From a virus (taxonomy: Duplodnaviria; Caudoviricetes): a stretch of DNA of 64,000 bases. The stretch's first letter is position 1; each line of letters begins with the position of its first letter. This document shows, one piece after another, positions 32,333-61,641 of this stretch. The stretch is from positions 32,001 to 96,000 of the IMG/VR virus record IMGVR_UViG_3300008740_000001, one strand, 5' to 3'. The position numbers and the translations under genes are program-made. The notes beneath the pieces were generated by a model. The model did not search any database, was not told where the DNA came from, and saw only the letters and a list, made by a program, of their open reading frames with translations.

Positions 32333-34141
32333 ATGGCCAAGAACAAGAGATATACAAGAAGCATTAAATATACCAGTAGAGATTTCTCATCCATCAAGAC
32401 CGATCTGATAGAGCAAGCAAAAATCTACTATCCAGATACGTATAAGGACTTCAATCAAGCTAGTTTTGGCTCTATGATGCTGGATGCGGTTGCATACGTT
32501 GCCGACCAGCTTTCCTTTTACTTAGATTATCAAGCGAATGAGAGCTTTTTAGACACCGCAGTAGAATACAATAATGTAGTTCGGCATGCCCGCAGTCTGG
32601 GATATCGGTGGAAAGGTGCACCATCAAGCACAGGTGTCATCGCGCTCTACATAATCGTCCCAGCGGTCGGCTTGGGAATGGGTGTGGACACAGATTATGT
32701 TCCGATCCTTAAAGCCGGCGCCCAGTTAAAGTCTGGCGCCACCAATGCTAGTTTCATATTAATGCAAGATGTGGATTTTTCATTAAGTTCTAATGAAGTT
32801 GTTGCCGCAAAAAAGGATTCCACCACCGGCTTGCCGTCTCATTGGGCCATTAAGGCTTACGGTAAAGTGATATCGGGAGAACTGATGCGGAAAACGGCCA
32901 CAATTGGTTCGTTCCAAAGATTCTTGAAAGTACCAGTGGGCTCTATTAATTCCGTTTCAGAGATCCTCCGCGTCACAGACGACGAGGGTCATGAGTATCA
33001 TCAGGTGGAATATCTATCGCAAGATGTAGTTTATAAAGAGGTGGTGAACCAAGACGCCCGTGCCTCGGGCATTCCATCGGTTATGAAGCCATATTCTGTT
33101 CCGAGAAGGTATGTTTTAGAGACAGAGGGCTCAAACCTGTATGTTCAGTTTGGACATGGATCAGATTCCGAAACTTCAGATCCTTCCGTTGTTGAACCGA
33201 CAAATTTAACCCTCCAGCGATTTGGGAGAGATTATATAACAGACGAGGCCTTTGATCCTACAAACTTGTTATCCACAGATAAGTTCGGAATCAGCCCAGC
33301 TAACACAAAGTTGTACATAGTATACAGGATGAATTCAAAGGAAACGGCTAATGCTGCTGTGGGCACCGTCAATAAGACTGGTGACTATGAGATGGTAGTG
33401 GCTAACGAGCAGATTTTAAGCCAAACTAAGCTTCGTGAGGTCCGAAAATCCCTAGAGTGTTATAACGAAGAGCCATTTGTTGGAGACATCACACTTCCCG
33501 ATTCTGCAGAAATTAAGAGAATGGTATATGATAATTTTGCCACGCAAAACAGGGCAGTCACTCAGCAAGACTATATGGCACTAATCTATTCTATGGATCC
33601 AAAGTTTGGATTAGTAAAGAGGTGCAATATTTTGAGAGATCCGGATTCTCTCAAGAGAAACTTAAATCTATATGTGGTTTCAGAAGGTCCCGATGGAAAA
33701 CTAATTGCTGCAAACGATACATTAAAAAAGAACCTTAAAACATGGATAAACCAATATCGAATGATCAATGACACGATTGATATTCTAGACGCAAAAATAC
33801 TCAATTTTAAAATTAATTTTTCAGTAGTGGCTCACAGGGATTATGATAAACACGATGTTTTAAATCAATGCATTAGTGTCTTAAAAGACAAATTTGCCCA
33901 ACCGCTGTCCATGGGCGAACCATTTTATATCTCAGATATACAAAAGGTGTTAAACGATGTCCCGGGCATCACCGATGTGAAACAGGTTATTGTGGAGTGC
34001 GCATCCGGAGGAACATACTCGACAGCATATATGAACGTCAACCAGCAAAAATCAGCAGATGGTAGATATGTCGCCATTCCAGCAAATTGTGTAGTTGAGA
34101 TAAAGTTTCCGGACAACGATATTATAGGATCTATTACATAA
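32333..34141 (+). CDS. Baseplate wedge subunit, T4 gp6/baseplate-J-like
   Basis: YTSRDFSSIK...DFNQASFGSMMLDAVAYVADQLSFYLDYQANESFLDTA and QNRAVTQQDY motifs. Confidence 0.88.
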   Translation: MAKNKRYTRSIKYTSRDFSSIKTDLIEQAKIYYPDTYKDFNQASFGSMMLDAVAYVADQLSFYLDYQANESFLDTAVEYNNVVRHARSLGYRWKGAPSSTGVIALYIIVPAVGLGMGVDTDYVPILKAGAQLKSGATNASFILMQDVDFSLSSNEVVAAKKDSTTGLPSHWAIKAYGKVISGELMRKTATIGSFQRFLKVPVGSINSVSEILRVTDDEGHEYHQVEYLSQDVVYKEVVNQDARASGIPSVMKPYSVPRRYVLETEGSNLYVQFGHGSDSETSDPSVVEPTNLTLQRFGRDYITDEAFDPTNLLSTDKFGISPANTKLYIVYRMNSKETANAAVGTVNKTGDYEMVVANEQILSQTKLREVRKSLECYNEEPFVGDITLPDSAEIKRMVYDNFATQNRAVTQQDYMALIYSMDPKFGLVKRCNILRDPDSLKRNLNLYVVSEGPDGKLIAANDTLKKNLKTWINQYRMINDTIDILDAKILNFKINFSVVAHRDYDKHDVLNQCISVLKDKFAQPLSMGEPFYISDIQKVLNDVPGITDVKQVIVECASGGTYSTAYMNVNQQKSADGRYVAIPANCVVEIKFPDNDIIGSIT

Positions 34142-35646
34142 TGGCTATTAAAAGATACTTTGCTATAAAAGACAATACGATTACAAACGCGTATGAGACT
34201 AATTTAACTACCCGTGCAACCGGTTCTAACATGGGCGCGGCAGATATTTTAGAAGTATTCTCAATTTTTGGCCAAGCTACCGGCTCAACTGCTGCGGCTT
34301 ACGAAGCTTCTCGAATCTTAATTCAGTTTCATGCGACCGGCTCTGATATACAGAATAGCCAGAATTCGATCAAAAGAGACCGAACGCTCAGCAAACTCCC
34401 CGCTAGTGGAAGTGTAAACTTTTATTTAAGGATGACGAATACAAAACATTCCCTAACTACGCCTAGAGATTTTCGGCTGGTTGTAAGCGCTGTAGAAACT
34501 GCGTGGCAAGAGGGATATGGCTTGGATATGGACAATTATACAGATTTGACATATAACCAGCGCGGCTCAAACTGGGCCCGGGCTTCATCTGAAGCTACGT
34601 GGACCACTGCTGGTGGAGATTGGGATAACGACGATTCGTCGTCTTTGACTGCATCTTTCACTAATGGAACAGAAGATTTAGAACTTAACATTACGCCGAT
34701 TGTGGAGAAGTGGATTGCCGGCACCAAAGACAATAATGGTGTGATAATCCGCCTCACTGCAGATTTAGAAGATGCAGAAACTTCATATTATACGAAAAAG
34801 TTCTATGGGAGAACTTCAGAATTCTTTTTCCGTCGACCGGTCATTGAGGCTCGCTGGGATTCTGCCACTAAAGACGATAGAGCAAACTTTTACTACAGCA
34901 GTTCAAATGCCCCAGCAGCAGATAATCTGAATACACTTTACTTTTATAACTATATCCGTGGTCGTCTTACAAACATCCCCAACGTGGGTACGGGCAGCAT
35001 CTTGCTTAGCTTGTATTCTGGGTCTTCTGGCAACCCCGGAGGAAGCAAACTAGCACTTTCTAAGGGAGGCGGTGTTGTTACAGCCGCCGATGTCAACGTC
35101 ACCGGAGGATATGTAAGCACTGGCATTTATTCTGCTAGTGTAGCAATAACTGCCTCTTCTACAAACCGTCTCACAACATTGTATGATATATGGCATTCAG
35201 GCTCAGTGCAATATCACACAGGCACACTTGAGCCGCAAAGTTTATATGCGTCAAACTACAATCCAAATCCGACATATGTCACAACGGTCAACAACTTAAA
35301 GCCAGTATATCGTAAATCAGAAACAAATAGGTTAAGATTGTATACTAGAACAAAAGATTGGTCTCCAACTATTTATAATAAAGCTAGCAAAACTATTGAA
35401 AGGACGATTATTGACAGCGGATCCTACAGAATTACAAGGAATATTGATAGAACAGAGGTTATTCCCTTTGGCACAGGCTCGGATTTACATACCCAGATGT
35501 CTTTTGATGTATCTGGAAATTACTTCGATTTAGACTTTTCGATGTTGGAGCCGGGTTATTCATATACTCTAGATTTCAGTTATTACAATGGTTCAATAGA
35601 TTCGTGGACAATTCAGCCTGAAAAGTTTAAATTTAGAGTTGAGTAG
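34141..35646 (+). CDS. Virion structural protein with DNRLRE/CBM96-like domain
   Basis: KDNTITNAY...SRILIQF...WQEG...WTTAGGDW...LNITPIVEKW...NNGVII pattern. Confidence 0.6.
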   Translation: MAIKRYFAIKDNTITNAYETNLTTRATGSNMGAADILEVFSIFGQATGSTAAAYEASRILIQFHATGSDIQNSQNSIKRDRTLSKLPASGSVNFYLRMTNTKHSLTTPRDFRLVVSAVETAWQEGYGLDMDNYTDLTYNQRGSNWARASSEATWTTAGGDWDNDDSSSLTASFTNGTEDLELNITPIVEKWIAGTKDNNGVIIRLTADLEDAETSYYTKKFYGRTSEFFFRRPVIEARWDSATKDDRANFYYSSSNAPAADNLNTLYFYNYIRGRLTNIPNVGTGSILLSLYSGSSGNPGGSKLALSKGGGVVTAADVNVTGGYVSTGIYSASVAITASSTNRLTTLYDIWHSGSVQYHTGTLEPQSLYASNYNPNPTYVTTVNNLKPVYRKSETNRLRLYTRTKDWSPTIYNKASKTIERTIIDSGSYRITRNIDRTEVIPFGTGSDLHTQMSFDVSGNYFDLDFSMLEPGYSYTLDFSYYNGSIDSWTIQPEKFKFRVE

Positions 35647-35661
35647 CAATGAGAGGGAATT

Positions 35662-38600
35662 ATGGGCATCAAAGATCTATTTGAGAAACCACAACAAATT
35701 CTGACATCGGCCGACGCCGAAAGTACAACAAAAGATAAGGTTGAATCTCTTGATTATCTTGACGCAGTAATGCGCGCCAAGGAAGAGTTTGTTCCTCATA
35801 TTGATTTTTCTTCCGCTTCAAATTTTGCAATTTATGGTTCTGCAGAAAAATACTACGAAGATGCGGTTACAACCATCTACCGTCAATACCCATATGATGG
35901 CACTGCTCGGGAAGTGCAAGAGTTTAATTTAAATTTAAATTATCTCACAAAGCACGTTTTAGAAAGCTTATACCCCCGAACCACCGGATATATTACTTTA
36001 GGAAAAAGCGCTACTTACAGCGGCCTGTCTGGTTCATATGGTAGCCCTGCGGCAAACGAATACATTGAGTTTTTCGGCGGCCCGCATACCGCCTCTAACA
36101 TACAAACCTCGCTGGAAGGAATGGCAAATCGGCCATTACACGAAACGTTTGAATATTCTAATCAACTCTCATCTGATCCATATACTAAAGCCGGCTTTCA
36201 AAAAGACAGCAGTAAGAAAGGCACACAATTATCAAACCTAAGATTCAATCCGGCAGATGGAATGACCGTCGAGTTCTGGTTGAAGAAGGACGCTTTTGAT
36301 TCTACCAAGACCAAAAGGGAGGTAATTTTTGATCTGTGGAATGGGAAAGATGATGATGATATCGCCTATGGCCGTCTTCTTTTAGAGCTTTCCTCATCGG
36401 CAACGGATCCGTTCAGGCTGACCATGGTCTCCGGCTCTGGTTCCCCGGTCCAAGCCGGCTATCAGAGCGCCACTCGCATCGCCCGAGATACATCAATCTC
36501 CTCCGGAATAACATCAGAAAAGATCACGGGCGGGGATTGGAATCATTATGCAGTATCGATTGCAAATAAAGGCGCTAATAAAACTGCTGTAAAGTTTTAT
36601 ATCAATGGCGATCTGGATACTACAACGCTTTTAACTGGACAGATTAACGAGGTGACAGGCGGATTAAGAGCCCACCTTGGCGCACTAACTCATCCAAATC
36701 GACAGCACGGAGGAGCTAAGGGCCACGGGCTTTTGAGTGCTTCTTTAGATGAATTCAGATATTGGAAGGAGGCCCGCTCTTCAGAACAAATCGGCCGTTA
36801 TTGGTGGACACAGGTTCGGGGCGGCTCAAACAGAGAAGTTTACAATTCAAGTTTGGGCGTATATTATAAATTCAATGAGGGTGTCGTGCAAACCGACGCC
36901 ACCGATTTAACTGCATATGCTATTGACAAAAAGGTGCTTGACTACTCAGGACGCGTCTCGAACGGTAATTGGGTCGGCTACCCCGGATATCCTGAAGGGG
37001 CCCGCTCAACGGATTCTGCACTAAACCGAACCGGCTCAGCAGAATTTAAAGATCCAATCATTTATAACTCGCATCCAAAAGTTAAGGCCTTGCTTGCAGA
37101 GCTTAAATCTTCAGGCTCAATCTGGGACGACCAGAACAATGCTTCAATGTTGAACGCGGTCCCCACTTTTATGAGAGAGCAGGACGAGGCCTCTGGTGAT
37201 GGAACGCTGACAAACGTGCTTCAAATGATGGGTTCTTATTTTGATAAGATTTATCATCTCGTTGACGCGCTGCCAAAAATTAGAGCCACTTCATATTTGA
37301 CCGCTTCTGCCAAGCCCTATCCTTTCGCCACCCATTTGTTAGAGAGCGTCGGCATGAATGCTCCACAGATGTTTGTTAATGCAAATGTTTTAGAGTCCAT
37401 TTCAGCCCGCGATGAAGATCGAAAGTATGAAAAAGACATATCGGAGATTAAAAACCTCATATATCAGAACATTTATAACAATCTTGTATATGTGTATAAA
37501 TCAAAGGGTACCGAGAAATCGATTAGAAACATAATACGGTGTTTCGGCGTGGATGAGGAATTAATACGCCTCAACATGTACGCCAATAACATGACGTATG
37601 AACTACAGGACAACGCTAGAACAAAGACTGTAAAGAAGAAATACATCAACTTCAACGATGTAGACAAATTTGATTGCGTAATATATCAGTATCCAGACCC
37701 AAATAATTCAAATACGGTCGGATATATAACTGGCTCTGGGCCAACAACCGTAACGGCTAGCTTGGGACATGAGGATGTTTTGGGAATGACGGTCGAGACA
37801 GAAGTTCTCTTCCCAATCAAGCTTACTCAAAGAGATTCGGGGTTTTTTACAACGGATTTTGAAGAAGCTTCCTTGTTCGGCTTACATACACCATTAAGCG
37901 ATGCGTCCCTATTGACGATTTCTAGGCCCAATTACGCGAACTTCCAAGTGACTGCTATTCGACCTCAGCGTGAATCGAAGCATGTATATTTTAAACTGAC
38001 ATCTGAAGACCCCGGAAACGGTTTCAGTGCCCCAATTCCTGAGTTGACATCTAGCTTGTTTACCGAGGTATATGACAATCAAAGATGGAATCTATCAGTA
38101 AGAGTTAAGCCTAGCAAGCCGTTGAAAAATCTTGTGTCAGGTAGCCACGCTTTGGCTTCTGATAAATATGAGGTTCACTTTTACGGTGTCAATATGGAAA
38201 CTGGTTATAAAGAACACTCGTTCCATCTATCGGCCTCCATTGCGGGCCACGAAGCACGCAACTTCTTGCGCGCCTCAAAAAGACTATATGCTGGCGCCCA
38301 CCGCGATAATTTCGTGGGAGATGTAAAAAATTATACCGATGTTAAGGTTTCATCGATAAGATACTGGGCAACTTTCCTTGAAAATAGTGAACTAGATGCA
38401 CATGCCTCCGATGCAGAAAACTACGGAGTATCAGATCCGTTTGAGAACCTTACATTATACGACAAGCAGCTTGGCGGAATTCATGTGCCTAGGATTGATA
38501 CCCTAGCACTGCATTGGACATTCGGAAACGTAACTTCTGCTTCGTCAGACGCGGCTAGCCCAACGTTGTCGGATTCATATTTTTACGCCGATGACGTTTC

Positions 38601-41600
38601 TTCCGGATCGGTAGAAGCAGTTAGCGCCGCAAGATATGGTTGGCTTAGTAACATTGTTCACAAACAGCACAGCGCTAAGGGCGACTTGTTTCTGCCACCA
38701 GAAAGCGGCGACAAAAACCCTGTCGATGTTAATTACATATCCTCTGCACGCCGTCAGTTACCAGAAGTAATTAGTTCGAATGATGCAGTTCAGATACTGA
38801 CTCAAGATGACGACAAATATACTAGAGAGCATAGAATTGTTGAACACTATTATGCATTAGAAAAGAGCATGTATCAGACAATCTCGGAAGAGATGATAAA
38901 CATGTTTGCATCTGTCGTTGATTTTAACAACCTTATTGGCGAACCCGTTAACAGATATCGGCAAGAATATAAAGATTTATCAAAGTTACGTCAACTTTTC
39001 TTCGAACGCGTTGGAGAAGTTTCAACTTTAGATAGATATATCAATTTTTACAAATGGATTGACAATGCTGTTACTACAGTTATCCAGCAGTTAATCCCGG
39101 CCTCGGCTGAGGTTTCAGAAGAACTCCACAATATGGTTGAAAGCCATGTTCTAGAGAGGAACAAGTATTGGACTAAATATCCAACGATTGAATTTAAGCA
39201 GGACGATCCAGAGGCCGGTGTTCATGGTGTCCACGAGTTAACTTATAACTGGAAATTTGGTCACGCTCCAGTCGATAATTCTGCACAATCTAACAATGCG
39301 CTTTATTGGCGTGAACGCGCCCACCGTGCTTCTGGCTCACTAAGCTCTGGCAATACAAACACTGACCAAGATCGTGAAGATCTTAGGATTAAAATAAACC
39401 AGCATCGTGAAGCCAAGGGCAAGATGTTGGCCAACGAGGATAATACAACCTATACCGGCAGAGTATACGCTCTTAAGAGATTTACAAAGCCATATAGGTT
39501 TACTGTTGATATTCCAAGAGAGTTGCGTTCGGGTACAAACTTCACTAGAAACAGAAATGTGCAGGTAGCCAAGACAGCGCTAGCTTACGGCGCCCCATTG
39601 ACCATCTCCTCGTCAACAAATCGCCCGGGCCTCCCGGGCCTCCCCACGGGCGTCATGTTTGTCGACGGCGATACGCTGGGACAATTTAAAGACATCAATG
39701 ATAATTTGGAGTTAAGGCGAAAGCGCTTCCATGATGGAACGGTGATCTTGGCTAGAGAGCAGGAGTATGATGGCAGGCAGGCAGTGCCCACTTCTACAAT
39801 CGCCAAGATTCTACCGGGCAACGTAGTAAGTAGTTCGGTGATTTCTGGATATAACAAAGTATTCAGTGGGGTTAACACTCCCGGCTTCGTAACAGGCACG
39901 GCGATTACGAACATTCATCATGATTTTTACGGCGAAGATAGGGAGATCCCACTGCAGGGCCCCTTCGTAGCAAAATATGTCGGTGGCCACCAATCTAGAC
40001 ACGTTAGATTGAATCCCGGTACGGATACTTCACATAACCGCCCAGAGGCTTGGAAGCTTTTGATAGGAAAAAGAGACTCCACAGAAGCGTTTAGAAACAC
40101 TAAAACTTCCGGAGCTTTTGGATTTGTGAGTCCTGACTATCCATATCCAAACATGGGCAAGAACCCATCACCTGCCACTGCTGTTTTCACTGCTGCCGGA
40201 AGCCACCCGAAGGCCGGCTCCAAGCTTAGATTAACTGATGGTGTAAATACAGCGACCTTTGAATATTGGGACGACGACATGACGGGGGATCACGATACGG
40301 CTCTCACTGCAGCCGAACAGTTGTTGAGCGCTTCACACATTGCAGTAGATATGGCGGGCCAAACCGGCCTCGCTGGGTCCGCCCTGCGAACCGCAAAATT
40401 AAACAGTATGGCCAATGCAATTAATGAGTCGACTATTGCAATGAACGCCACTGTGGACGGAAATGATATAACAATTACCAATACACGATATGGGCACTCA
40501 ACATCCAAGGGCCCCAACATATACGGAATAAAGGGCAACACTGAAATTTCTTCGTCATATGAAACGGTCTACGATTATCGCATGACGAGCGGCCTGCGTA
40601 TCGATGAGGTTTCTGCTCGCACACTCGCCCCGGGTCATGCCGCCAATGGCTATTCCGCAGGTATTGGATTTGAAGATCAGAGCGACTCCATAGCGGATAT
40701 TTTTGACACTGGCGCATCCGGGTGGGGTGAATTTACCATGACCGGCTGGTTCTACTTGCATGATGGTAGTGTCGGAGAGGCCAGAACAAATCTTCATAGA
40801 ACCCTCTTGACTCTCGGACCCTACTCCGTCCTTGGGAACAACTTGGCGATATCGATTATCAACAACAAACTGCATCTTAGGGTGGATCAGGGTACCATCG
40901 ATGCGCATCGTATGGCATATACAACAAATTCAGCAATCGTCACAGGCTCAGATTGGTATCATATAGGGGTCGCATGGAATCACCATTCCACCCGTAACAC
41001 CCAGACCACTAAAGAAGTTGAGAACGTACCGCGAATGTATGTGAACGGTACTCTTGTTGAGGGAGATTACAAGGATTACGATGGCTCAGTTTATGTTGGG
41101 ACCGGCTCCCTGCCAAGCTTTAACACGATAACTAAGTCCGATGGCGCCAATAATCGCACTCTTGTTGGTACTGTTGGTTGCATGATCAGTTCTGCTGCCA
41201 AATTCATGTCTGCCTCTCATCTTGCGGGCGATGTAATTGGAGATCTGGCCCTCTGGAATGCTAAATTAACTGCTGCTGAAATAACAGAGGCGTATAGTGG
41301 GCAAGGCCACAAACGACTTCTGCCCGGAGCCCAAAATCTCTTTAATCATTCCAAGTATAAGTCCAACTATAGCGACTCCGCTCTTAAAGCATGGTGGGGA
41401 TTTGGCGATGCGACCAAGCCAAATGCTGATAATGAGCTTTACGATGATGTCACCTCCATTTGTGGCACGCGTGGTGCACCCGGCGCCGCCGATGCTAAAG
41501 AGTTCTGCTATAACGGTGTTTATGGCTCCGGCGCCGGCCTCCGCTTAATAGCTTGGGAATACCAAGGAACGAGTTTCGGCGGAGACAATCCCCACCCCGG

Positions 41601-51034: not shown

Positions 51035-54000
51035 CGCCAGATGTAAACTATGATTCAATGTTCGAAGGGATACTGCCAACCCCTAAAATTAGAACAGTGT
51101 CTTTGAAGCTTTCGCCTTTGCCTCCTCCGGTAAATAATCCTCATATTGATCATGTGAGGGAAACAATCATATATGAAGGAAGAGATGGAACGCAGCAGCT
51201 TAAGTCCCCCGGGTTTTCAATTAGTAAAGATCCGAGAAATCTTCTGATTGAAGTTACCGTAGTTTTAATAGACAAGATTGAAGATAGTGGGATTTCATCT
51301 TGGTTTAAAGATGAAGACTTGATGAAATATATGAGATTGCAGTTAATTCACTGCGAAGACGCAACATTTTCAGAAAAACTAACCTCTCAAACACTTAGTC
51401 CACTGCCGTCAATGGTTAATAAATACAAAGAGAACAATGGATTGGTCCAGAATGTTGTGATATCTCTAGAAAGCTCAGAAGATCTTGAGGGGTTTTACGA
51501 CAAAGAAGCCGGCGAAAATGTAGTCAAAGAGGCTTCATATAAGTTTAATTTCGCTATCAATACTACGACGCCAAAACACTTGACTTATTTTGCAAATGTT
51601 TATTTAGATACCGATCAATTGATAAATGATTATAGTTTAGATTTGTCTGATAATGGATTAATATCCGCCGTTAGTGATACCACAGTCGAATCAGTATACA
51701 AAGATGGTAAGCAAGTATCATCTGCTTCCATGTACTATACAAAGGGTTCTAATATTTTCACTGGACAAGTATATGAAGCTCCCGGCGGAATTGTGGTGCC
51801 ATCAACGGTTATAAATGACGAACAAATCATCATAGATCTAAATACGATTCTGTCCTCTTTCAGTTCAGATGCACGCTCCTCAACCGCGAATAGTTATAAA
51901 CAGCAGTTAAACAAAGTTATGAACGACCACTCAGCGCCTAAAATGGGACAAATAAACAGGTTGCTCAAATCTTGGCAATCAAGAGATGGCAGGACGAAGG
52001 CCGGCCGCATTTATAAATTATTGAAAAAGAGATATGAGGTATATGAAAAGAAGATTAACGCATCTACGCGCCAGTTAACTAAAAAACAAGTCACCAACCC
52101 CACAATTCGTGATGATCGCACAATAGCAGATTTGGCCGACATTGAGATCACACTAGAAGCTCCAGTAGAAGAGACTTTGGCCCTTGAAGACATCCGTTCG
52201 GCCAACAATAACATGTCGGCCGAAACTGCTGCAGCCAATTTAGAAAACGCACTATACTTTAGTGAGTTGTCGTTAACAAGGCCTACTGATAGTTCGGTCC
52301 GTGGCCTTTTTTTGGTAGATTTCGAAAAAATGGTGTCTAAAAATAGCAAATATTCCGGCTTGCTAAACAACACGAATGCTGAAATTCGGTCTGTTTTACG
52401 AGATCGTGTAAGATTAGAAGGTGTTAGAATAACAAGAGAGAGAATAGACGACCAGAACACCTTGAGTCAGTATGATCTGCATATGGTAAGAGATACAGAA
52501 TCGATTAATCAATTGATAGCTAATGGAGTGATCGACGAAAAAACAAAGGAAATAAAGGGCGCCGCTCTGGAGTCTTCGACAAACAAAAAGAAGGGTGAGC
52601 TTATTGGTTCTGTATCACAGGTCCACTTGGACGGCATAACTAATCGCAACATCATGGCTTTCGAGATACGTGATGCTAACATGGTGGGCAAAACTACTGG
52701 AAAATACAAATACCGAGTTAGCCTGTTGGCAGTCGATAGGATTGGCATATATCTGGCCGACAAGCTTTATGAGCTTGTTCAGGCCAAGGAGAGTATGAAA
52801 GTATATTATAATCTGGCCAACTTACAGTGTAACTATGATCTTAAGAACGAACGTTTTACGGAATTTTTTATTGCGTCTTTATATGAAAAATATAACTTAG
52901 CTAATCCGGATTCCTTAATGTTGGAGAATATAGAAGAACTGAATAAGCTTCTGGTTTCTGAGTCCCCCATGGACGCACCTTGGATGCGACCAATTACGAA
53001 ATATGTTGAGGTACTGAATTTATTTGGGGACATTAACGATGACTCCGGCGCCTCGCTGGCTAAGAAGATGTATCTGAAAGTAGAACCTTCGACAGCCACA
53101 CCGGACTCGATTTTAGAAGTTATTGGTCAATTGGAAGAGCTAGAAACAAAGGCCTCCGACGCACTGGGGCTGTCACAGACACAACTTGCATCATACAACT
53201 CTGCGGGATCCAAAATCACTGCAAACCTAGCTGCCAATATACAAATTGACTATCTTTTCAATAGTGTTCTGGATAACACCACGTTGAGTAATGTCGGCGC
53301 CCGTTATTTGGAATATGCTTCGGAGGCAACTCAGGGCCTCCCGGTGATAAGCAAAAACGACTATGTTCGCAGACTCAATCAAGAAAATTCAAGATATTTT
53401 AAAAATAATCCGACAAAAACTGCAAACGCCTTAAACGATATGGGCACATACAAATTGTCTTATTTGGCGCCATCATTTATGCAGGTCGGAGGTAAAAAAT
53501 TAGCATTATTAGAACGAGGAGAATCTTTGTATGACCCAGATCAATTCCAAGAAATGCTGTTCAGTATCTCTCTCTTAAAGACAAATCCAGCAGCGCGCTC
53601 TTTGACAATGCCAGTGTTGAACAAGTCGGCAACCAGTCTAGATCAGAGCACCAAAGCTTCGTCAGAAATGTCGTCAATTAACACTCAGGCATTGACTCTT
53701 TTGGCTAATTTCGGGATTGCATTTGCCAGCCCTAAGCCATCTAAGTCATCCTTGACGATTACCGCCGATCCTTTGTCTGAAGTAAAAAGCATTCTTGGCG
53801 AGAATACTCTTTTGGCAATCAATAACGCCGTCATGAACGATATTAACACGGCCGACGATTTGTCGATGATAACGGATTTAACAAACGTAGAAGTCTCGGT
53901 TGCAGATGCCACCTCGATGGCGAGTGCACTAGTGGGTACCTTGACTAATCTGGGAATGCAAAATTATTTTGGGATTAATGCTCAGGGCTTACAAGTGGCA

Positions 54001-54939
54001 GAAATGAGTGCAGTAGAAAAAGAACAGGTTCAGTTTTCTAAAACTTTAGACTTCTTTGATCTGACGAATCCTAAAAATGGAATCGACGCAGAAATGAAAA
54101 CGGCTGGGGGGAAAAGCTCCACTTCGAAGATTAGAAAAATTCCAAATCAATTAAAAAGCATATTTTTGACAAAAACTGGCCAAGCTAGCCCAAACAAGAA
54201 CTGGTTCCAAATGGAACAAGATCCTATCACTAGTCCAGATACGAGAGCAATATTCGAAATTCTGTATTTTAACTTACAACAAGTGGAAGTTCTGACCGGC
54301 TTTGAAGTTTCTCCTGAAGGAACTTTGTTGTTGAGGAGTCCGCAATGGGAATTGTTACAAGAATCACACTTTTCTAATGTTGGAAAAATATTTTGTAGAA
54401 TGAGCAGATACAGAAATGATTTATTGCATGTTGGCCAAACCGACATGATAGATTTACCGGCATATAACGATTATTTCGTTTTAAACATGTCAGACAGATC
54501 AACAAAATTTATCAGCCCGGTCACTGATCCCGGCCTTTATACATCCGGTGGAGAATATGAATTGCCTGACGGAACTAATTATATAGGCGATTATCATATC
54601 CACAAGGACGGAACTGTTATGACCGGCACTGATCATACAGAAGCCAGTGAGGTACTGGTGCCTATTGGGAGCACGATTTCGACGAAGGCACGCGCATCTC
54701 GTCGCGCCTCCTCTTTACTGCAAGCAGATGAGTCGGGATACCAGCGTACTTTGTTACAGCAAATGGTTTCAACTCATTATGAACAAGTTGCAGTCTCAAG
54801 CGAGTATTGTTCAACAGCTAAGACGATTACAAGCGCCGGCCAGCGAACAACAAAGAAAGCCAGCAAAAGGGCCACCACGTCGGCATCCACCAGATCTACG
54901 AAGGGTTCCAAGAACAAGAGAAGTAGGAGTAAATATTAA
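51022..54939 (+). CDS. 1305-aa hypothetical (probable virion) protein
   Basis: Long ORF inside the structural module. Small His-rich module GDYHIHKDG..GTDH near the C-terminus, followed by a basic tail. Confidence 0.5.
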   Translation: MPRLTPDVNYDSMFEGILPTPKIRTVSLKLSPLPPPVNNPHIDHVRETIIYEGRDGTQQLKSPGFSISKDPRNLLIEVTVVLIDKIEDSGISSWFKDEDLMKYMRLQLIHCEDATFSEKLTSQTLSPLPSMVNKYKENNGLVQNVVISLESSEDLEGFYDKEAGENVVKEASYKFNFAINTTTPKHLTYFANVYLDTDQLINDYSLDLSDNGLISAVSDTTVESVYKDGKQVSSASMYYTKGSNIFTGQVYEAPGGIVVPSTVINDEQIIIDLNTILSSFSSDARSSTANSYKQQLNKVMNDHSAPKMGQINRLLKSWQSRDGRTKAGRIYKLLKKRYEVYEKKINASTRQLTKKQVTNPTIRDDRTIADLADIEITLEAPVEETLALEDIRSANNNMSAETAAANLENALYFSELSLTRPTDSSVRGLFLVDFEKMVSKNSKYSGLLNNTNAEIRSVLRDRVRLEGVRITRERIDDQNTLSQYDLHMVRDTESINQLIANGVIDEKTKEIKGAALESSTNKKKGELIGSVSQVHLDGITNRNIMAFEIRDANMVGKTTGKYKYRVSLLAVDRIGIYLADKLYELVQAKESMKVYYNLANLQCNYDLKNERFTEFFIASLYEKYNLANPDSLMLENIEELNKLLVSESPMDAPWMRPITKYVEVLNLFGDINDDSGASLAKKMYLKVEPSTATPDSILEVIGQLEELETKASDALGLSQTQLASYNSAGSKITANLAANIQIDYLFNSVLDNTTLSNVGARYLEYASEATQGLPVISKNDYVRRLNQENSRYFKNNPTKTANALNDMGTYKLSYLAPSFMQVGGKKLALLERGESLYDPDQFQEMLFSISLLKTNPAARSLTMPVLNKSATSLDQSTKASSEMSSINTQALTLLANFGIAFASPKPSKSSLTITADPLSEVKSILGENTLLAINNAVMNDINTADDLSMITDLTNVEVSVADATSMASALVGTLTNLGMQNYFGINAQGLQVAEMSAVEKEQVQFSKTLDFFDLTNPKNGIDAEMKTAGGKSSTSKIRKIPNQLKSIFLTKTGQASPNKNWFQMEQDPITSPDTRAIFEILYFNLQQVEVLTGFEVSPEGTLLLRSPQWELLQESHFSNVGKIFCRMSRYRNDLLHVGQTDMIDLPAYNDYFVLNMSDRSTKFISPVTDPGLYTSGGEYELPDGTNYIGDYHIHKDGTVMTGTDHTEASEVLVPIGSTISTKARASRRASSLLQADESGYQRTLLQQMVSTHYEQVAVSSEYCSTAKTITSAGQRTTKKASKRATTSASTRSTKGSKNKRSRSKY

Positions 54940-57458
54940 TGTCTCTAGCTAAGAAGAAAACCTATATTCCCGCTTCCCTTATTGGTACGCCTACAGATCC
55001 TTTGCGCAGTGAACTCGGCGCCCACTGGATTCGTTATAAAAAGTCGGAAAAGTTTTCAAAGCATGAGCAGTTGCTATACTTGGCCGACAATACTAATAAT
55101 GCGGATTTAACAATACCGACAAACATCAAGGACTTTACGTTTTCAGAGGAAACGGATGTAGACTCCGCTCGCTGGACTCAAAAAAAGGTTACTATGAGGA
55201 TTTATGGAGACCCGAACACTTTTGAGAGCCAAAAGCATTGGCGCGCCTTCGTACTCGGCACAGTTTATAATGAGGAGGCTTACGCACCAATCATCAACAC
55301 TGGAACAAAGTATACAGACCACGTATTCACATGTGAGGCTCCTTTTACAGAAAAAGAAGCTAGCCTTTTAGGCGGCTCGTCTTTGGTGAAAACATACGAT
55401 GTGGACTTGGAATACAACTTCTATCAAAGAGAATATGAAAGACTCTCCATACGTAAAGTACCAGAGAGGCTGCTACCTAACTTGTATGTACTATATTCGT
55501 TTAAAGAAGAGGAGGAAAACGACGCTGTTGTAACGAACAAGATGTTCCGCAAGCACGTTTCCTTGGGGGGCGCCCTCAACGACAACACGGTAAATCAGTT
55601 CACAGACATAGGTTCAGAAAATCCAGATGTATCCAATAGTGACGAATACCTTAAATCGTTTTCTTATGCTATTTTAGATCGCACTGTATCAAAAGAAGGG
55701 CTGTCGAGCGTGATTGAGGCATACCAGAATGTTATGTTACCTGCATCTAACCTGAGTATACTTGGCTATAATGTAAAAAGGGAAATGTTCCCCATGTACA
55801 GCGACATTACTTTTGCTACTGACAAGACGACACAGTTCACACAAATATTGCTAGACTGCAATGCTAGTTGCACTTTTATGAAAGACATATACGATTCGAC
55901 AAAGGGCTCTGATTTGACCTTTGTTGATCAGAACTTTACAACACATGTTGAAGTTCCTGTACAGAAGGAAAACGAATTAGGTACAACCACATACGATAGT
56001 GTCAGCATGCTTGGCACTTCTGCTGCTAGAATTTGGAACATGAACGATTGGTATGAGCATTTTCAGACAATAGAACCAACTCCGATGGTAAACGGCATTT
56101 ATCTGGGCCACCAAAATAGAGAAACCCAGCTTGTCACTGAAGCAAATTATGGCTTTTATAAAAAGCTAATGGAAACAATTTTCTCTGGCAAGCTGAGAAC
56201 CCTTATAAAAAGCCAGCAGCGCCGCTTTGCTGATGTTATAGATGGAGACAGTTCATATTCGGAAGAGGTTTTTTACAAAATTGAAAAGTATGCCGGAAAT
56301 GCCACGGGTACCCCCATGCAAACTTTTTGGATTCCAAATACCAACGAGGTCGATATTGTTAACTTTATCGACACACAGGTTAAATATAACAAGAAGTACA
56401 CATATGTAGCCACTGTACACAAGCTAGTTATTGGAGCTTCCTATCGATATAGTAATGTGGCAGTCACAAAGAGAGTAACAGAAGATTGCGTCGAGTTTAT
56501 TGACGCGACTACTGGAGACACAGTATCACCCAGAGTTGAGGGCGATGTCACCGTGAACAACATTACGGGAACTCGTACTGCTATTGCAATAAACAAGGAC
56601 GACAGATTTATGGCAGAGGTAGATGTCACTATGACACCGGAAATCTTTTTGGTCGAGGTACCATTCTTTACTTATTCTGCTAGACTTATTGACGATCCGC
56701 CCATGCCTCCTGAAATCGACATATTGCCCTATAGAACCGACAGTAGATTCTTGAAATTTTTTATGCAAGGCTCTACGGGAGAACTGGAAGTAATGCCAAT
56801 TATATTAACTGACAAAGACAGAGTGATGGTCCAAAAAATACGGTCGGCTAAAAATCTAAGTAAAACAGAACCCATTGTTTACAAAGCGGACGATTATCCT
56901 TCATACTTTGAAATTTATCGATTAGATGAGCCGCCGCGAAGTTATAAGAGTTTCCGAAACAACCGTCGCGCCGTCGTAAAGACAGATATCTCGGATCAGA
57001 CAGCGCAGAAAGCCTCATCGGCCGCATATGTAGAGCAAATTCTGCCAAATATAAAATATTATTATATGTTCCGTTCAATAGATCTTCATGGCAAAACAGG
57101 TTACCCTTCTCCAGTATATGAAATCGAAATGGTAGAAGACAAGGGAGCCTTTTACCCCATAGTCAAGGTACACACAATTAATCCGCGTCTAGATCTTACA
57201 ACAATAAAATCTGGACGAAGATTCGTTCAAATCATACCAAATATTGGGCACACACTAATTAATGAAGTAGACTCGGCTTTTGAAGACTATTCATCAGCGA
57301 AAGATATCCCGGGCGACGTGGCTTATGGGTTCAAGGAAGACCCAATCTGGGGCAAGAAATTTAAGGTAAGAATCACATCGAAAAAGACAGGCAGAAAAAT
57401 GGACTTTAACCTTCAGTTTAAAACCAAAAGAGTTAAAACAGATTTTGAAGCAAGTTGA
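54939..57458 (+). CDS. 839-aa hypothetical (probable virion) protein with FN3-like strands
   Basis: FIDTQVKYNKKYTYVATV and ILPNIKYYYMFRSIDLHG resemble FN3 E/F strands. TAATG overlap. Confidence 0.5.
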   Translation: MSLAKKKTYIPASLIGTPTDPLRSELGAHWIRYKKSEKFSKHEQLLYLADNTNNADLTIPTNIKDFTFSEETDVDSARWTQKKVTMRIYGDPNTFESQKHWRAFVLGTVYNEEAYAPIINTGTKYTDHVFTCEAPFTEKEASLLGGSSLVKTYDVDLEYNFYQREYERLSIRKVPERLLPNLYVLYSFKEEEENDAVVTNKMFRKHVSLGGALNDNTVNQFTDIGSENPDVSNSDEYLKSFSYAILDRTVSKEGLSSVIEAYQNVMLPASNLSILGYNVKREMFPMYSDITFATDKTTQFTQILLDCNASCTFMKDIYDSTKGSDLTFVDQNFTTHVEVPVQKENELGTTTYDSVSMLGTSAARIWNMNDWYEHFQTIEPTPMVNGIYLGHQNRETQLVTEANYGFYKKLMETIFSGKLRTLIKSQQRRFADVIDGDSSYSEEVFYKIEKYAGNATGTPMQTFWIPNTNEVDIVNFIDTQVKYNKKYTYVATVHKLVIGASYRYSNVAVTKRVTEDCVEFIDATTGDTVSPRVEGDVTVNNITGTRTAIAINKDDRFMAEVDVTMTPEIFLVEVPFFTYSARLIDDPPMPPEIDILPYRTDSRFLKFFMQGSTGELEVMPIILTDKDRVMVQKIRSAKNLSKTEPIVYKADDYPSYFEIYRLDEPPRSYKSFRNNRRAVVKTDISDQTAQKASSAAYVEQILPNIKYYYMFRSIDLHGKTGYPSPVYEIEMVEDKGAFYPIVKVHTINPRLDLTTIKSGRRFVQIIPNIGHTLINEVDSAFEDYSSAKDIPGDVAYGFKEDPIWGKKFKVRITSKKTGRKMDFNLQFKTKRVKTDFEAS

Positions 57459-57469
57459 TAAGTTGAGTA

Positions 57470-57492: not shown

Positions 57493-57515
57493 TAAAAGGA
57501 GAAGAGGATTAACAC

Positions 57516-58430
57516 ATGGCATTTTTAGATAATTCGGGAGATATCATTCTCGATGCAGTTTTGACTGATACGGGACGTTTCCGTTTGGCAAAGGGGGACG
57601 GAAGTTTTAAAATTACAAAGTTTGCTCTAGGTGATGATGAAATAGACTACGCCTTGTACAACAAAACCCATGCCAGCGGCAGCGCTTATTACGATTTGGA
57701 ACTGTTACAAACTCCTGTTCTCGAAGCCTTCACCAACAACACCTCACTGCTTAAGTCAAGACTTGTTTCTATTCCAAGAACAAACTTGCTGTATTTGCCG
57801 GTAACAAAGATTAACGAGATTTATTCCACCAACAATGCACGTCACACCAGCGGCGCATTTTTGGTTGCAGTTAATAAAGATACCGAGGAGGCTCTCGGTG
57901 TCGATTCTTCGGGCAATGCAGTTAGCGGAATCATGTATGGTGAAAATGTGGGAGCCGGTACAACAATTAGGATTGATCAGGGACTGGATACAACAGAAAT
58001 CTCCCCAGCTTTTACAATTGATGCTGACCTTGTTGAGACGCAGTATATCGTTGAGATTGATAATCGATTCGGATCCATGGTCAACCCAACGAATGGTTCT
58101 ATTGCCTCGCCTTCTTTTATTGACGATGACAACATTGCAACCTACTTCTTCTCTCTGGGCACAGACATTGGCATTGTCTCAGAGAATACCGAAAGAGATG
58201 CAGCCGCCTCTACACAGACAATTCAAGGCCCTCGCGGCACTTATTTAGAAATGCAAATGCAAGCTTCGCTGGATTTGAACACGGGTACTTTCTTGTTTAC
58301 CGAATTGGGTTCTACCACGACTGTCAATAGCGTGTCGGTTTACTATATTGACACAACTCTTCGAATTACGGGCGCCACCACAGGTTATAGGCTTGATGTC
58401 CCGGTTCGATTCGTAAGAAAACAATCATAG
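57516..58430 (+). CDS. Virion structural protein (tail-collar-fibre N-terminal-like)
   Basis: DAVLTDTGRFRLAKGDGSFKITKFALGDDE resembles the P2 gpH/DUF3751 N-terminal LT..G...LA....IT.MAVGD motif. Confidence 0.6.
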   Translation: MAFLDNSGDIILDAVLTDTGRFRLAKGDGSFKITKFALGDDEIDYALYNKTHASGSAYYDLELLQTPVLEAFTNNTSLLKSRLVSIPRTNLLYLPVTKINEIYSTNNARHTSGAFLVAVNKDTEEALGVDSSGNAVSGIMYGENVGAGTTIRIDQGLDTTEISPAFTIDADLVETQYIVEIDNRFGSMVNPTNGSIASPSFIDDDNIATYFFSLGTDIGIVSENTERDAAASTQTIQGPRGTYLEMQMQASLDLNTGTFLFTELGSTTTVNSVSVYYIDTTLRITGATTGYRLDVPVRFVRKQS

Positions 58431-58447
58431 GGATATAGGATAAAAAT

Positions 58448-59665
58448 ATGGCAACCACATTTAAAACATTTTCTAGCAATGACGTAATTTCAACAAAGAC
58501 CTTGCTGCACGAAGCGGTACCCGTCACGGGCGCAATCTGTTCCGGAACATATGCAGATGGCAATATTAAGAACTATTCACATGGAATGTTCGAATCAGTT
58601 TACGACTACCCGTATCTAAGTTCTTCGGCAAACCATATTTTTGATATTACCATAGGGTATTCTCCCAAGTCTATTCTGTATGCAACTGGTTCGACCAAAG
58701 TCATGCAAACAAAGAAAAACAGCATCTACAATCAAATGGCGCAGGTGCTCATGGGATTCGACCATACTGGCTCGGTCCAGTTATTCGACGAAGACGGAGA
58801 CCTCCTCGCCGGCGGAAATAAACTTAAAGAATGTTTCTTCCTCAACTTCTCTAGATTGCTGGTTAAGGACGAGATCAAAAAAGGCTCGTTTGCAGTAGAA
58901 TTCGGAGTTGGCTCTAATGCCCCACACTACAATACTGACGATGGAACAAACAATACTTTCCAGAAATTAGTAAAGTTGGCGGACACAAACGCCCAGAATG
59001 ATTTTAGAGTTAACTCTCCGGCCGGCGAATACGGCGTGCTGTATGCATCTGTGTCAAAGGGTTCGAATGTGCTGTTTGGCGATCCCGCAGACGGCGCCAC
59101 CACCGTCCGCGCCGGTTTGATTTATTATCAAGCAGGCATTGCAGTTATCACATCTTCTTTGTTCCACAGGGCAACATCGGATGATACGGGGAATCCCACG
59201 TTAGACTCTTCCAGAACCGGTACGGGATTGCTACACAGAAGCCTAGGCGCCCCACTCACAGCCTCTATTTATGCTCATAAGGGGTATAACACGACTGATT
59301 CACACGGCGGTACACCCGGCGAAACTTTCCAGATGCTATTTACGGGCTCCAACATTACGGCCTCTTGTGACGGCTTACGCGCCCGAATCTTTAATATATC
59401 GTTCAACAATACGACAGAACTTAATTCTACGGTATATTTCTGCAGAGCGAACCACAATGAATTCAATTATAGTTCAAATCCGACCTATTTGAGTTCTTCG
59501 AAGATCCGCGTGAAGCAGCAGAGCACAGACACTCCGGTATCTTATATTACAACGGTTGGATTATATTCGGCCGATAATGAGCTTATGGCATGTGCAAAGC
59601 TGAGCGAACCATTACGTAAAGACCCCACTAACGAGATGACACTGCGAGTCCGCTTGGACTACTAG
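58448..59665 (+). CDS. Virion structural protein, paralog of the 60379 gene
   Basis: EIKKGSF, GLIYYQAG, NEFNYSSNPTY and YITTVGLYSADNELMACAKLSEPLRK motifs. Confidence 0.6.
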   Translation: MATTFKTFSSNDVISTKTLLHEAVPVTGAICSGTYADGNIKNYSHGMFESVYDYPYLSSSANHIFDITIGYSPKSILYATGSTKVMQTKKNSIYNQMAQVLMGFDHTGSVQLFDEDGDLLAGGNKLKECFFLNFSRLLVKDEIKKGSFAVEFGVGSNAPHYNTDDGTNNTFQKLVKLADTNAQNDFRVNSPAGEYGVLYASVSKGSNVLFGDPADGATTVRAGLIYYQAGIAVITSSLFHRATSDDTGNPTLDSSRTGTGLLHRSLGAPLTASIYAHKGYNTTDSHGGTPGETFQMLFTGSNITASCDGLRARIFNISFNNTTELNSTVYFCRANHNEFNYSSNPTYLSSSKIRVKQQSTDTPVSYITTVGLYSADNELMACAKLSEPLRKDPTNEMTLRVRLDY

Positions 59666-59666
59666 T

Positions 59667-60356: not shown

Positions 60357-60364
60357 ATAGTGGG

Positions 60365-60371
60365 CTAATTA
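60365..60371 (+). promoter_or_regulatory. Candidate late promoter element CTAATTA
   Basis: Lies in the 22-nt gap, 14 nt upstream of ATG 60379. That ATG lacks an obvious SD. Confidence 0.45.
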
Positions 60372-60378
60372 ATATACG

Positions 60379-61641
60379 ATGTCTGTTTATAAATTCGAGC
60401 GCGGCGACATATTTCACAATCAGATAAAGACTTATCCTAAGTTTAGCTTTTTTGTATATAACAACAAAATATACATAAACAACAAGACTAATATAAGTGG
60501 TTCGTTTACTGACAGCACGCCCGGCGCAGACGGCGACGGGGGTCGCACTGTAGAAACTGGCCACGTTAGCCTTTACGAAATGAACGTAGATAGAGCGAAG
60601 TCCAACACGGGCCGCACCATATTCTATGACGACGTAAGAGATACCGGGATCATATATCCTTTTATCACCAAAGACGGCACCTTAAGTGCATTTAAGACAG
60701 TTTCTGCCGGCAGCTTTGCGACTTTTGGGTATGGCACCGTCATGTCATCAAGCTATCCGATGACATCTAGCCTCACCAGAGATTTTTATCAGCAAGGAAC
60801 TTCACGCAAGCACATCACTGCACTTAAGAATACACTGAATTATTACACGCCCTTGAGTGATCACTATGCGTTCACCTCTTCTCTAGGAGACAAGAGCACT
60901 CAGGATCTCTGCATGATTAGTATCCCTTCGATTTTATATGGCTCATCGATAAAGAAAGGTTCGGTATCGCTAAAATTTTATTTGTCGGGCGCCCTCTTAG
61001 CAGAACTACAAGATCGTGATCGCAATGGAGAACTAATACAGGTTTCTGGTACAACTTACGCACAAGCACAGGGTTCTGGCTCTGTGGCGGGCGTCATACT
61101 GTATAATGAGGGGTTTATTCTTCTTACGGGCAGTTGGCCTCTTGAAGATCCGACTACTGAAAAACGTGACTTTTTAAATGACCCCACAGATCATCGCTCT
61201 AGCGCTTGGAAGTACTGGGGCACTTCAATGCCAAGTGATGGTTATTCGGTTCCTGAATCTGGCCAGACATTAGGCTGGGTTTCCTATGGCTTAGATTATC
61301 GAGGAACCAACTACGTTCCTGTGCTTACTATGTTGGCTCACGCTCCAAAGGGAGAATTGAATTATTCTAATAATCCAACATTTATTAAACACGGCCAGCG
61401 ACGAAAAATGACGCCTATAACTGGTTCGCGAGTTTATAGAGAAGTAGACACAATATCTGCCAAAAATACAATGAGTTCTAGCTATGCAGATCCGACCGGA
61501 AGTTACCAAAAACAGACTTTTATAACAAAGATTGGTTTATACGACGCAAACAATAATTTAATCGCGGTCGCAAATTTAGCAAATCCAGTGAAAAAGTTAG
61601 AAGAATTAGATTATACTTTTAAACTGAAGTTAGATTTTTAG
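60379..61641 (+). CDS. Virion structural protein, paralog of the 58448 gene
   Basis: SIKKGSV, GVILYNEG, GELNYSNNPTF and FITKIGLYDANNNLIAVANLANPVKK motifs. Confidence 0.6.
   Translation: MSVYKFERGDIFHNQIKTYPKFSFFVYNNKIYINNKTNISGSFTDSTPGADGDGGRTVETGHVSLYEMNVDRAKSNTGRTIFYDDVRDTGIIYPFITKDGTLSAFKTVSAGSFATFGYGTVMSSSYPMTSSLTRDFYQQGTSRKHITALKNTLNYYTPLSDHYAFTSSLGDKSTQDLCMISIPSILYGSSIKKGSVSLKFYLSGALLAELQDRDRNGELIQVSGTTYAQAQGSGSVAGVILYNEGFILLTGSWPLEDPTTEKRDFLNDPTDHRSSAWKYWGTSMPSDGYSVPESGQTLGWVSYGLDYRGTNYVPVLTMLAHAPKGELNYSNNPTFIKHGQRRKMTPITGSRVYREVDTISAKNTMSSSYADPTGSYQKQTFITKIGLYDANNNLIAVANLANPVKKLEELDYTFKLKLDF

Follow-up and report, generated by a model that had tools for sequence, protein, structure and literature searches.

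A directional [ST]-[GA]-S tripeptide enriched in outer virion proteins of a T4-related myovirus: a candidate glycosylation sequon

The stretch of DNA analysed here, in the following called the window, comprises 64,000 nucleotides (positions 32,001 to 96,000) of the IMG/VR virus record IMGVR_UViG_3300008740_000001, a tailed phage whose genome is complete with 203,859 bp and direct terminal repeats; all genes of the window are located on the + strand. The feature under study is a tripeptide, [ST]GS and its variant [ST]AS (together [ST][GA]S), which accumulates in a tail module at 34141-61641 and which a preliminary description had proposed as an acceptor sequon for glycosyltransferases (GTs) encoded in the vicinity. 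The module starts with a 501-aa peripheral baseplate protein (34141..35646) that carries 12 [ST][GA]S, nine being [ST]GS, followed by a giant tail/baseplate protein of 4753 aa (35662..49923) with 40 sites, 21 with glycine and 19 with alanine. Further carriers are a 355-aa tail protein (49967..51034) with two SGS and weak enrichment (p=0.017) and two fibre-related proteins of 405 aa (58448..59665; five [ST][GA]S, three of them [ST]GS) and 420 aa (60379..61641; five sites, all [ST]GS). The hand counts first given for these proteins (in this order nine; about 20 [ST]GS plus about 20 [ST]AS; two; three; five) are reproduced exactly. Although the interval as a whole is enriched as described, it includes two tail-module proteins at 51022..57458, of 1305 aa (from 51022) and 839 aa (from 54939), which with 2 and 0 sites versus 2.8 and 0.9 expected are unenriched internal negative controls. 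A 304-aa protein (57516..58430), the N-terminal ~90 aa of which are conserved in the Flavobacterium phage immuto and the Microcystis phage Mel-JY01, has one site and is not enriched. Upstream, a 2522-aa protein and the gp25-like and gp6-like wedge proteins (24274..34141) contain 2, 0 and 0 [ST][GA]S, and the near-absence of the motif noticed before holds, 0-1 [ST]GS being counted in the gp6-like and the 2522-aa protein and in almost every sugar enzyme of the window.

The excess survives null models of composition and of local composition. Nine [ST]GS in the 501-aa protein stand against 0.86 expected (Poisson p=3e-7), and the giant protein exceeds its expectation of 5.7 [ST]GS and 5.6 [ST]AS several fold. 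Taken together, the nine proteins of 34141-61641 have 67 [ST][GA]S compared with 20.6 +/- 4.4 after shuffling within each protein (z=10.5; at most 37 in any of 2000 permutations) and with 22.1 +/- 4.7 (z=9.6) when blocks of 30 aa are shuffled such that local composition is kept; composition taken in 50- and 100-aa windows and masking of low complexity likewise leave the excess in place. As SGS ranks first (p=1e-8) and TGS second (p=4e-6) among all 8000 tripeptides of the tail module, with TAS seventh, the post-hoc choice of the motif is not a problem. A first-order Markov (dipeptide) null removes about half of the excess, whereby [ST]GS remains significant (41 vs 21.5, p=1e-4), while significance is lost for [ST]AS alone (26 vs 19.3, p=0.08); this null is over-conservative, since the motif itself raises the dipeptide counts. 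Serine, threonine and glycine make up ~10%, 10% and 8% of the enriched proteins. That the sites are not repeats on the DNA level, as had been stated, follows from 58 distinct 9-mers among the 67 sites, and the codons vary at all three positions. The glycine codon is GGC at 27 of the 41 [ST]GS sites versus 44% of all glycines there (p=0.007), a mild preference not displayed by Gly-Ser without a preceding serine or threonine. On the genome level, the excess is restricted to about nine of 215 open reading frames (ORFs), with 91 sites versus 79.5 expected in the remaining 208, and the portal, the tube, the gp6-like protein and the 2522-, 1305-, 839-, 927- and 806-aa proteins together have 16 sites versus 23.9 expected.

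Residue preferences, computed in the eight enriched proteins of the genome, are position-specific and directional, a sequence specificity beyond composition. At position 1, serine and threonine are each enriched 4.0x and no other residue is; at position 2, glycine is favoured (5.0x) over alanine (2.9x) and serine (1.9x), and E, K, R, N, P and T are under-represented; at position 3, serine is enriched 4.0x in contrast to threonine (0.85x). The reversed motifs, identical in composition, are not enriched, as 27 TGS stand against 4 SGT (p=3e-5) and 17 TAS against 4 SAT (p=0.007), nor are the good turn-formers at the third position ([ST]-[GA]-N 1.04x, -D 0.98x, -T 0.85x). Hydrophobic residues are in excess directly before (32 vs 20.5 expected) and directly after the motif (35 vs 20.5), the flanks being rich in V/I/L/F/Y and not in D/E, so that the full pattern is Phi-[ST]-[GA]-S-Phi, with Phi a hydrophobic residue. 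From the exchange of glycine and alanine in the same alignment columns it is argued that position 2 needs a small residue and not a glycine with a positive phi angle. A generic beta-turn propensity (type I'/II' hairpin) was considered and rejected, as alanine and serine replace glycine, N, D and T are unenriched, and the beta-rich proteins of T4 lack an excess.

In the AlphaFold2 (AF2) model of the 501-aa protein (pLDDT 76) an N-terminal jelly-roll, similar to a carbohydrate-binding module (CBM) or DNRLRE domain, is followed by Ig-like beta-sandwiches. Foldseek matches include a chondroitin-sulfate CBM (8wab) and Ig/FN3 folds, while on the sequence level DNRLRE and Disaggr_repeat matches are weak. 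According to DSSP, seven of the 12 sites abut the end or the start of a strand in this model, two lie within a strand, and site 353 is a two-residue hairpin.

The scope initially assigned to the motif, the outer tail and baseplate, stands, but extends beyond the window to the tail sheath, to two fibre-like proteins of 286 aa and 828 aa and to the N-terminal part of the capsid protein. In the tail sheath, eight sites are all found between residues 143 and 605 and none in the universally conserved C-terminal core (620-966), which is common to 2,684 phage records. The 614-aa major capsid protein (MCP; 120460-122304 of the complete genome) has four [ST]GS sites, all at residues 178-294 and outside the canonical major-head-protein core (353-590); a ~350-aa N-terminal region, which precedes the canonical profile match, holds all four. 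Site locations are thus restricted to non-core regions of sheath and capsid and to peripheral tail proteins. Six sites, each in the context PhiPhiPhi-[ST]GS-Phi, are present in the 286-aa fibre-like protein, the N-terminal 180 residues of which are unfolded as a monomer in an AF2 model, in which the C-terminal beta-sandwich is confident; the model is suggestive of a knobbed fibre shaft. With 15 [ST][GA]S, the 828-aa fibre-like protein (116813-119299 of the complete genome) ranks third in enrichment. It consists in part of a tandem ~65-aa repeat, FVSASGF[SA]GDGSN[LI] with [QR]SGS[IL] about 30 residues further on, and has no PHROG match.

The carriers are not paralogs, as BLAST detects no homology among the enriched proteins, and they differ in fold, from jelly-roll and Ig-like domains to sheath insertion domains, the extra capsid region and fibre shafts. 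A shared domain or paralogy as the cause of the motif is thereby rejected at the sensitivity of BLAST. The 405-aa and 420-aa proteins have only a C-terminal ~100-aa domain in common. Copies of this domain occur also in Mel-JY01 (five), immuto (two) and the Rhodothermus phage RM378 (one), and it may represent a family of swappable distal (receptor-binding or knob) domains.

The motif is conserved in homologs, and it also turns over. For the 501-aa family, which has >5,700 metagenomic homologs, 110 homologs with 50-65% identity have a mean of 7.1 [ST]GS versus 0.98 expected, and sites 27, 89, 170, 293, 331, 426 and 445 are retained in 69-97% of them, with exchange of SGS/SAS and TGS/TAS within the same columns. 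Homologs of the 420-aa protein (n=118) have a mean of 5.1 [ST]GS versus 0.73, with sites 233, 250 and 373 retained in 73-94% and TGS/TAS exchange at 373, and the 286-aa family retains its full set of six sites, some of them down to 28% identity. In 58 homologs of the giant protein (~37% identity), 17.8 [ST]GS versus 3.8 and 11.7 [ST]AS versus 3.3 are counted, so that a 4.5x excess persists; sites 359, 484, 981 and 2073 are retained in 76-93%, while most others turn over. After removal of the conserved 'core' columns, the labile sites that are left number 5.4 per sequence in the 501-aa family and 3.7 in the 420-aa family, as compared with 1.93 and 1.23 expected for the entire protein. As labile sites exceed expectation about threefold, the density of the motif is maintained beyond ancestral positions alone.

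The enrichment is a property of a lineage. Identity of the MCP is 51% to immuto, 48% to Mel-JY01 and 42% to RM378, and 32-33% to the pelagiphage Mosig, the cyanophage S-B64 and T4; the portal ranks the relatives in the same order, and TerL and portal are also nearest to those of immuto and Mel-JY01. Capsid, terminase and portal are nearer to RM378-type than to T4-type or cyano-T4 phages. These identities, and not a tree, indicate that the phage belongs to the 'Far-T4' group of aquatic myoviruses, phages reportedly treated by Comeau & Krisch in 2008, or stands close to it. The Far-T4 phages are a group of uncultivated aquatic myoviruses (PMC4360716; Roux et al. 2015), which the phage resembles as they are abundant uncultivated aquatic myoviruses with the same MCP, terminase and portal affinity; in that paper the term 'glycosyl' has no occurrence and the motif is likewise unmentioned. 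Whole-genome observed/expected ratios, computed after masking of low complexity, are 1.76 for the phage under study, 1.82 for immuto, 2.13 for Mel-JY01 and 2.16 for RM378, all with TGS in large excess over SGT in the enriched proteins, as compared with 1.03 for S-B64, 1.22 for Mosig, 0.96 for the Bacillus phage SP-15, 1.20 for the Streptomyces phage Bordeaux and 0.60 for T4, which lack this asymmetry. Among the enriched tail proteins are, in immuto, those encoded by the ORFs at 84179, 135075 and 147026 and, in RM378, those at 64825 and 66276. In 20 structural proteins of T4, including fibres, the sheath and the Ig-like Hoc, 13 sites are found versus 21.8 expected. A generic property of myovirus fibres is ruled out by T4, S-B64, Mosig and SP-15. 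Because the thermophilic phage RM378 has the feature too, it spans mesophilic marine, freshwater and 65 °C hosts. The observation is thus real, specific and lineage-wide.

At the 5' end of the window two GT4-type glycosyltransferases are encoded adjacent to each other, GT4a (281..1555) and GT4b (1552..2817). GT4a scores 26.0 bits against the Pfam family Glycos_transf_1 (PF00534), just below the gathering cut-off of 26.4, which is exceeded by its orthologs in relatives (27-52 bits) and by GT4b (44.4 bits). In the ESM Atlas, the neighbours of GT4a are PF00534 clusters with structural template-modelling (TM) scores of 0.91-0.95, and the clusters of its family are 100% viral. GT4a is present with 43-57% identity in 20 of 20 relatives, namely five near-complete ones (46-57%) and 15 further ones whose contigs extend far enough upstream, and no loss of GT4a within the clade was found among these 20. 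A second GT4 always adjoins it (15 of 15 further relatives), whereby GT4b is far more divergent (22-65% identity to relatives), and the distance from GT4a to the gene of the 501-aa protein is 22-37 kb. In 50,697 records of cultured phages, homologs that cover GT4a over its full length are restricted to Mel-JY01 and immuto phages, with weaker partial matches in Streptomyces phages. In RM378 the second member of a GT pair is homologous to the N-terminus of GT4a; this same adjacent pair is located at 9165-11893, and Phi-[ST]GS-Phi is found in a tail-region ORF cluster at 64-78 kb. The NCBIfam models of the protein glycosyltransferases SdgA and SdgB (NF047880, NF047881) match GT4a and GT4b with ~18 bits versus a cut-off of 800, so that membership in these families is unsupported, the matches being no better than those of a generic GT4.

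The GT4 pair is followed by a variable sugar island (2801..19990), the content of which was assigned with Pfam and NCBIfam. It encodes NeuB, a CST-I-like protein, two cytidylyltransferases, a GT2, a SIS-isomerase-like protein, an MptE/Maf-like protein, a methyltransferase, a RuBisCO-like protein, two sulfotransferases, a GT8, an NTP-transferase, a 4,6-dehydratase, a PMI-cupin and a PhyH dioxygenase. A hydropathy scan found no polytopic membrane protein in the island, including flippase-, polymerase- and phosphoglycosyltransferase-like ones, which suggests a soluble, cytoplasmic pathway. The gene content of the island differs among the five near-complete relatives, all of which have the motif, and GT4a is the sole island gene kept in every one of them. 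NeuB is found in three of the five; the RuBisCO-like, Maf-like and GT8 genes and the sulfotransferase at 11903 are found in none, and the CST-I-like gene is also variable among motif-keeping relatives. For the 227-aa Maf-like protein (9343-10026), the MptE-like domain model is the only one whose cut-off is exceeded (53.6 bits vs 34.6), while the PseD model matches the catalytic-domain region only and with 25 bits against a cut-off of 670. An identity as Maf or PseD was accordingly rejected for this protein, which has no full-length match and no homolog in the five relatives. As the complete genome contains no gene of the thymidylate-synthase/hydroxymethylase family (PF00303), the route by which sugar-modified DNA is usually made is not apparent.

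The late sigma factor (from 20813, + strand) is encoded after the sugar island and before the baseplate wedge genes. Just 5' of it, a 124-aa protein (20467-20841) with a strongly hydrophobic segment (Kyte-Doolittle maximum 2.7) is kept in four of the five relatives compared. Directly after the fibre genes (61650-62620), a 137-aa cysteine-dioxygenase-like cupin and a 186-aa RuvC-like resolvase are encoded.

The pattern, in its general form [ST]-[G>A>S]-S, is well supported as a selected protein-level signal, as had been proposed at the outset: it is directional, conserved in columns with exchange of residues, turns over at 35-55% identity and is absent from T4 and three further myoviruses. The best single explanation of this signal, although we give it somewhat less than an even chance, is that of an acceptor of O-glycosylation. 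We infer from the sequences that the motif is glycosylated, on one of its two hydroxyls, with GT4a as the enzyme. The motif would then be exposed on outward parts of the virion, namely the outer domains of the sheath, the peripheral baseplate, the fibres and the extra region of the capsid. Its most likely reader would be the conserved, virus-specific GT4 pair, which would put the first sugar on the acceptor hydroxyl in the cytoplasm, during or after folding, whereby GT4a can be a candidate priming enzyme on a conserved acceptor, above which a diversifying glycan would be built. The strain-variable enzymes of the island (the nonulosonic-acid pathway, sulfotransferases and methyltransferases) would elaborate this sugar into a glycan coat of the virion that varies between lineages. 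A conserved priming GT combined with a diversifying glycan fits with the constancy of GT4a while the other island genes vary. The initial assignment of the motif to an adjacent GT4/Maf cluster is circumstantial and can be upheld for the conserved GT4 pair (281-2817), but not for the variable NeuB, CST-I-like and Maf-like genes; if the motif is a sequon, the GT4 pair is its reader and not the Maf-like or NeuB genes. The complete proposal, a tripeptide sequon [ST]-[GA]-S that is read by a virus-only GT4 pair and gives rise to a glycan coat on outer sheath, baseplate periphery, fibres and capsid protrusions which the hypervariable island diversifies, is still more tentative than the acceptor function as such. 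Such a coat would amount to a glycocalyx of the virus, marked by a sequon of its own; in the present phage it would bear sulfate, methyl and nonulosonate groups, and its logic would be like that of N-X-S/T.

Several observations weigh against glycosylation. The candidate sequon is known here from sequence, and the acceptor of GT4a is not revealed by homology, given the generic level of the SdgA/SdgB matches. Many of the sites are located within conserved sequence blocks. Placement at strand ends or within strands in the 501-aa model and the hydrophobic flanks fit a structural role and leave exposure unproven, and each of the six sites in the 286-aa protein belongs to what is probably an oligomeric fibre shaft, in which glycine-containing repeat units are structurally expected. 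The GT pair and the motif co-occur in 20 of 20 relatives and in immuto, Mel-JY01 and RM378 and are both absent from T4, S-B64, Mosig and SP-15, and no equally enriched homolog was found in a phage that lacks the GT genes. However, homologs of the enriched tail proteins exist only in GT4a-positive genomes, and these represent one clade by MCP, TerL and portal. Since the GT pair and the tail proteins are inherited together in one lineage, the anticipated correlation of enrichment with the GT4/Maf genes, which holds for the GT4 pair but not for the Maf-like gene, amounts to a single phylogenetic contrast, which cannot separate a sequon from a structural idiom of a lineage-specific tail module. 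Use of the association across lineages as independent evidence was therefore rejected as confounded by ancestry. In addition, the known cytoplasmic nonulosonate transferases (Maf) rely on protein docking and not on a sequon (PMC11339370). Finally, the island could act on precursors of the host envelope via the export machinery of the host.

Among the alternatives, a structural idiom of the lineage, which no enzyme reads and which is at home in beta-sandwich and fibre-shaft modules, survives best, although we consider it somewhat less likely than the acceptor function. Phi-[ST]-[GA]-S-Phi would in this case end or start beta-strands, or pack a small inward residue between two outward hydroxyls, and would be inherited and re-invented for reasons of folding or assembly in the Far-T4-like outer tail. 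The enriched hydrophobic residues on both sides, the strand-edge or in-strand location of most sites in the 501-aa model including the one hairpin, the near-invariance of the core sites within conserved blocks, the concentration of the 286-aa sites in a repeated, shaft-like region that is unfolded as a monomer, and the restriction of the enriched proteins and their homologs to one lineage are all in agreement with such an idiom. It accounts less readily for the occurrence of the motif in unrelated folds whose carriers share no BLAST homology, for the strict serine at position 3 where threonine, asparagine and aspartate would be equally good turn residues, for the replacement of glycine by alanine or serine in the same columns, which makes a positive-phi turn glycine dispensable, for labile sites at about three times their expectation, and for T4, in which beta-rich proteins of the tail and fibres and Ig-like ones such as Hoc have fewer sites than expected.

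That the motif is another recognition signal, such as a site of phosphorylation or of acylation by an enzyme of phage or host, a docking mark for a decoration protein or a tail-assembly chaperone specific to the lineage, or an array of surface hydroxyls that binds a ligand from the host or the environment, is less probable still. Specificity, directionality and turnover apply equally to such signals, as none of these identifies the reader, and a protein with a DnaJ-like match is encoded between the fibre genes (59667-60356). On the other hand, the GT4 pair co-varies with the motif, while for these signals no enzyme or partner that does so is known, and we are not aware that phage assembly elsewhere uses a tripeptide signal of this kind. 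The 229-aa protein encoded between the fibre genes has a sub-threshold match to the DnaJ J-domain (residues 101-127, 22 bits; cut-off 27.8) and may be a fibre assembly chaperone. An artefact of chance, composition or the DNA level (low complexity, repeats, codon or k-mer bias, post-hoc choice of the motif), to which the S/T/G-rich composition of the carriers, the absorption of about half of the excess by the dipeptide null with loss of significance for [ST]AS alone and the GGC excess would speak, is excluded by the controls and has next to no probability, in view of both kinds of shuffles, the top two ranks of SGS and TGS, the unenriched reversed motifs, the diversity of 9-mers and the recurrence of enrichment in hundreds of homologs at 35-65% identity.

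Should the motif prove to be a glycan acceptor, glycosylation of phage virions would have its first known short linear sequon, glycosylated sites would become predictable from sequence alone, and the large, fast-evolving sugar islands beside tail genes would find an explanation. The lineage concerned counts thousands of relatives in metagenomes from the ocean and from fresh water. The part played by virion glycans in adsorption, resistance to proteases and grazers, stickiness of particles or evasion of host surface defences would in that case become open to study, and the tag together with the GT4 pair would be a portable tool for glyco-engineering. If the motif is structural, it represents an unusually clean tripeptide idiom which defines how the outer tail is built throughout a phage lineage, and a useful marker for exposed virion proteins among those of unknown function. 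With immuto, Mel-JY01 and RM378, three relatives are in culture on which the question can be tested directly; published virion biochemistry was not found in the literature for Mel-JY01 or RM378.

A description of the motif was not found in the literature, and the proposed glycosylation is best judged against systems already known. A Gly-Thr glycosylation motif considered as a parallel was dropped, since the text of the Kuenenia S-layer paper does not bear it out. The attachment sites of eukaryotic glycosaminoglycans (GAGs), with which the preliminary description had compared the motif, are short Ser-Gly-containing acceptors with acidic flanks and the order Ser-Gly-x-Gly. The resemblance is superficial only, as here serine is required at position 3 and alanine can replace glycine, and the analogy is unsupported because the flanks are hydrophobic rather than acidic.

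Closer in enzyme family are GtfA-GtfB, which modify serine-rich-repeat adhesins, and SdgA/SdgB, which modify Ser-Asp repeats. These GT4-family cytoplasmic protein O-linked N-acetylglucosamine (O-GlcNAc) transferases are often adjacent pairs of GT-B fold that modify serine at multiple sites, with further GTs elaborating the first sugar. Their acceptors are likewise very short, serine-flanked units (of S-A-S or S-D type) with many per substrate; however, the substrates are long, disordered, low-complexity repeats of secreted adhesins, while the sites described here are dispersed in folded, beta-rich proteins. The heptosyltransferases Aah and TibC of the adhesins AIDA-I and TibA offer another parallel, as they O-glycosylate multiple serines in the cytoplasm at strand-loop-strand positions of a beta-rich surface protein. 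They do so with no strict linear consensus, and they differ by enzyme family, heptose donor and a single cognate substrate; among the family assignments of the island no Aah/TibC homolog is seen.

Maf and PseD enzymes catalyse a cytoplasmic O-linked nonulosonate transfer to exposed Ser/Thr, which the presence of NeuB, two cytidylyltransferases and an MptE/Maf-like protein in the window recalls. Maf enzymes, however, dock onto their cognate flagellin and use no short sequon (PMC11339370), and with ~600 aa Maf and PseD enzymes are much larger than the 227-aa protein of the island. Among phages, mycobacteriophages O-glycosylate virion proteins by means of phage-encoded GTs (Freeman et al. 2023, Cell Host Microbe, cited in PMC12619734); in these siphoviruses, as related there, it is the subunits of capsid and tail tube that bear the glycans, at their C-terminal tails. 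The decoration of structural proteins in the cytoplasm by the phage's own GTs, which leads to a glycan-coated virion, would be the same in the phage under study, for which it is a proposal. While no tripeptide sequon is described for mycobacteriophages in the account given by that source, the candidate acceptor here is a dispersed internal motif in sheath, baseplate and fibres of a T4-related myovirus.

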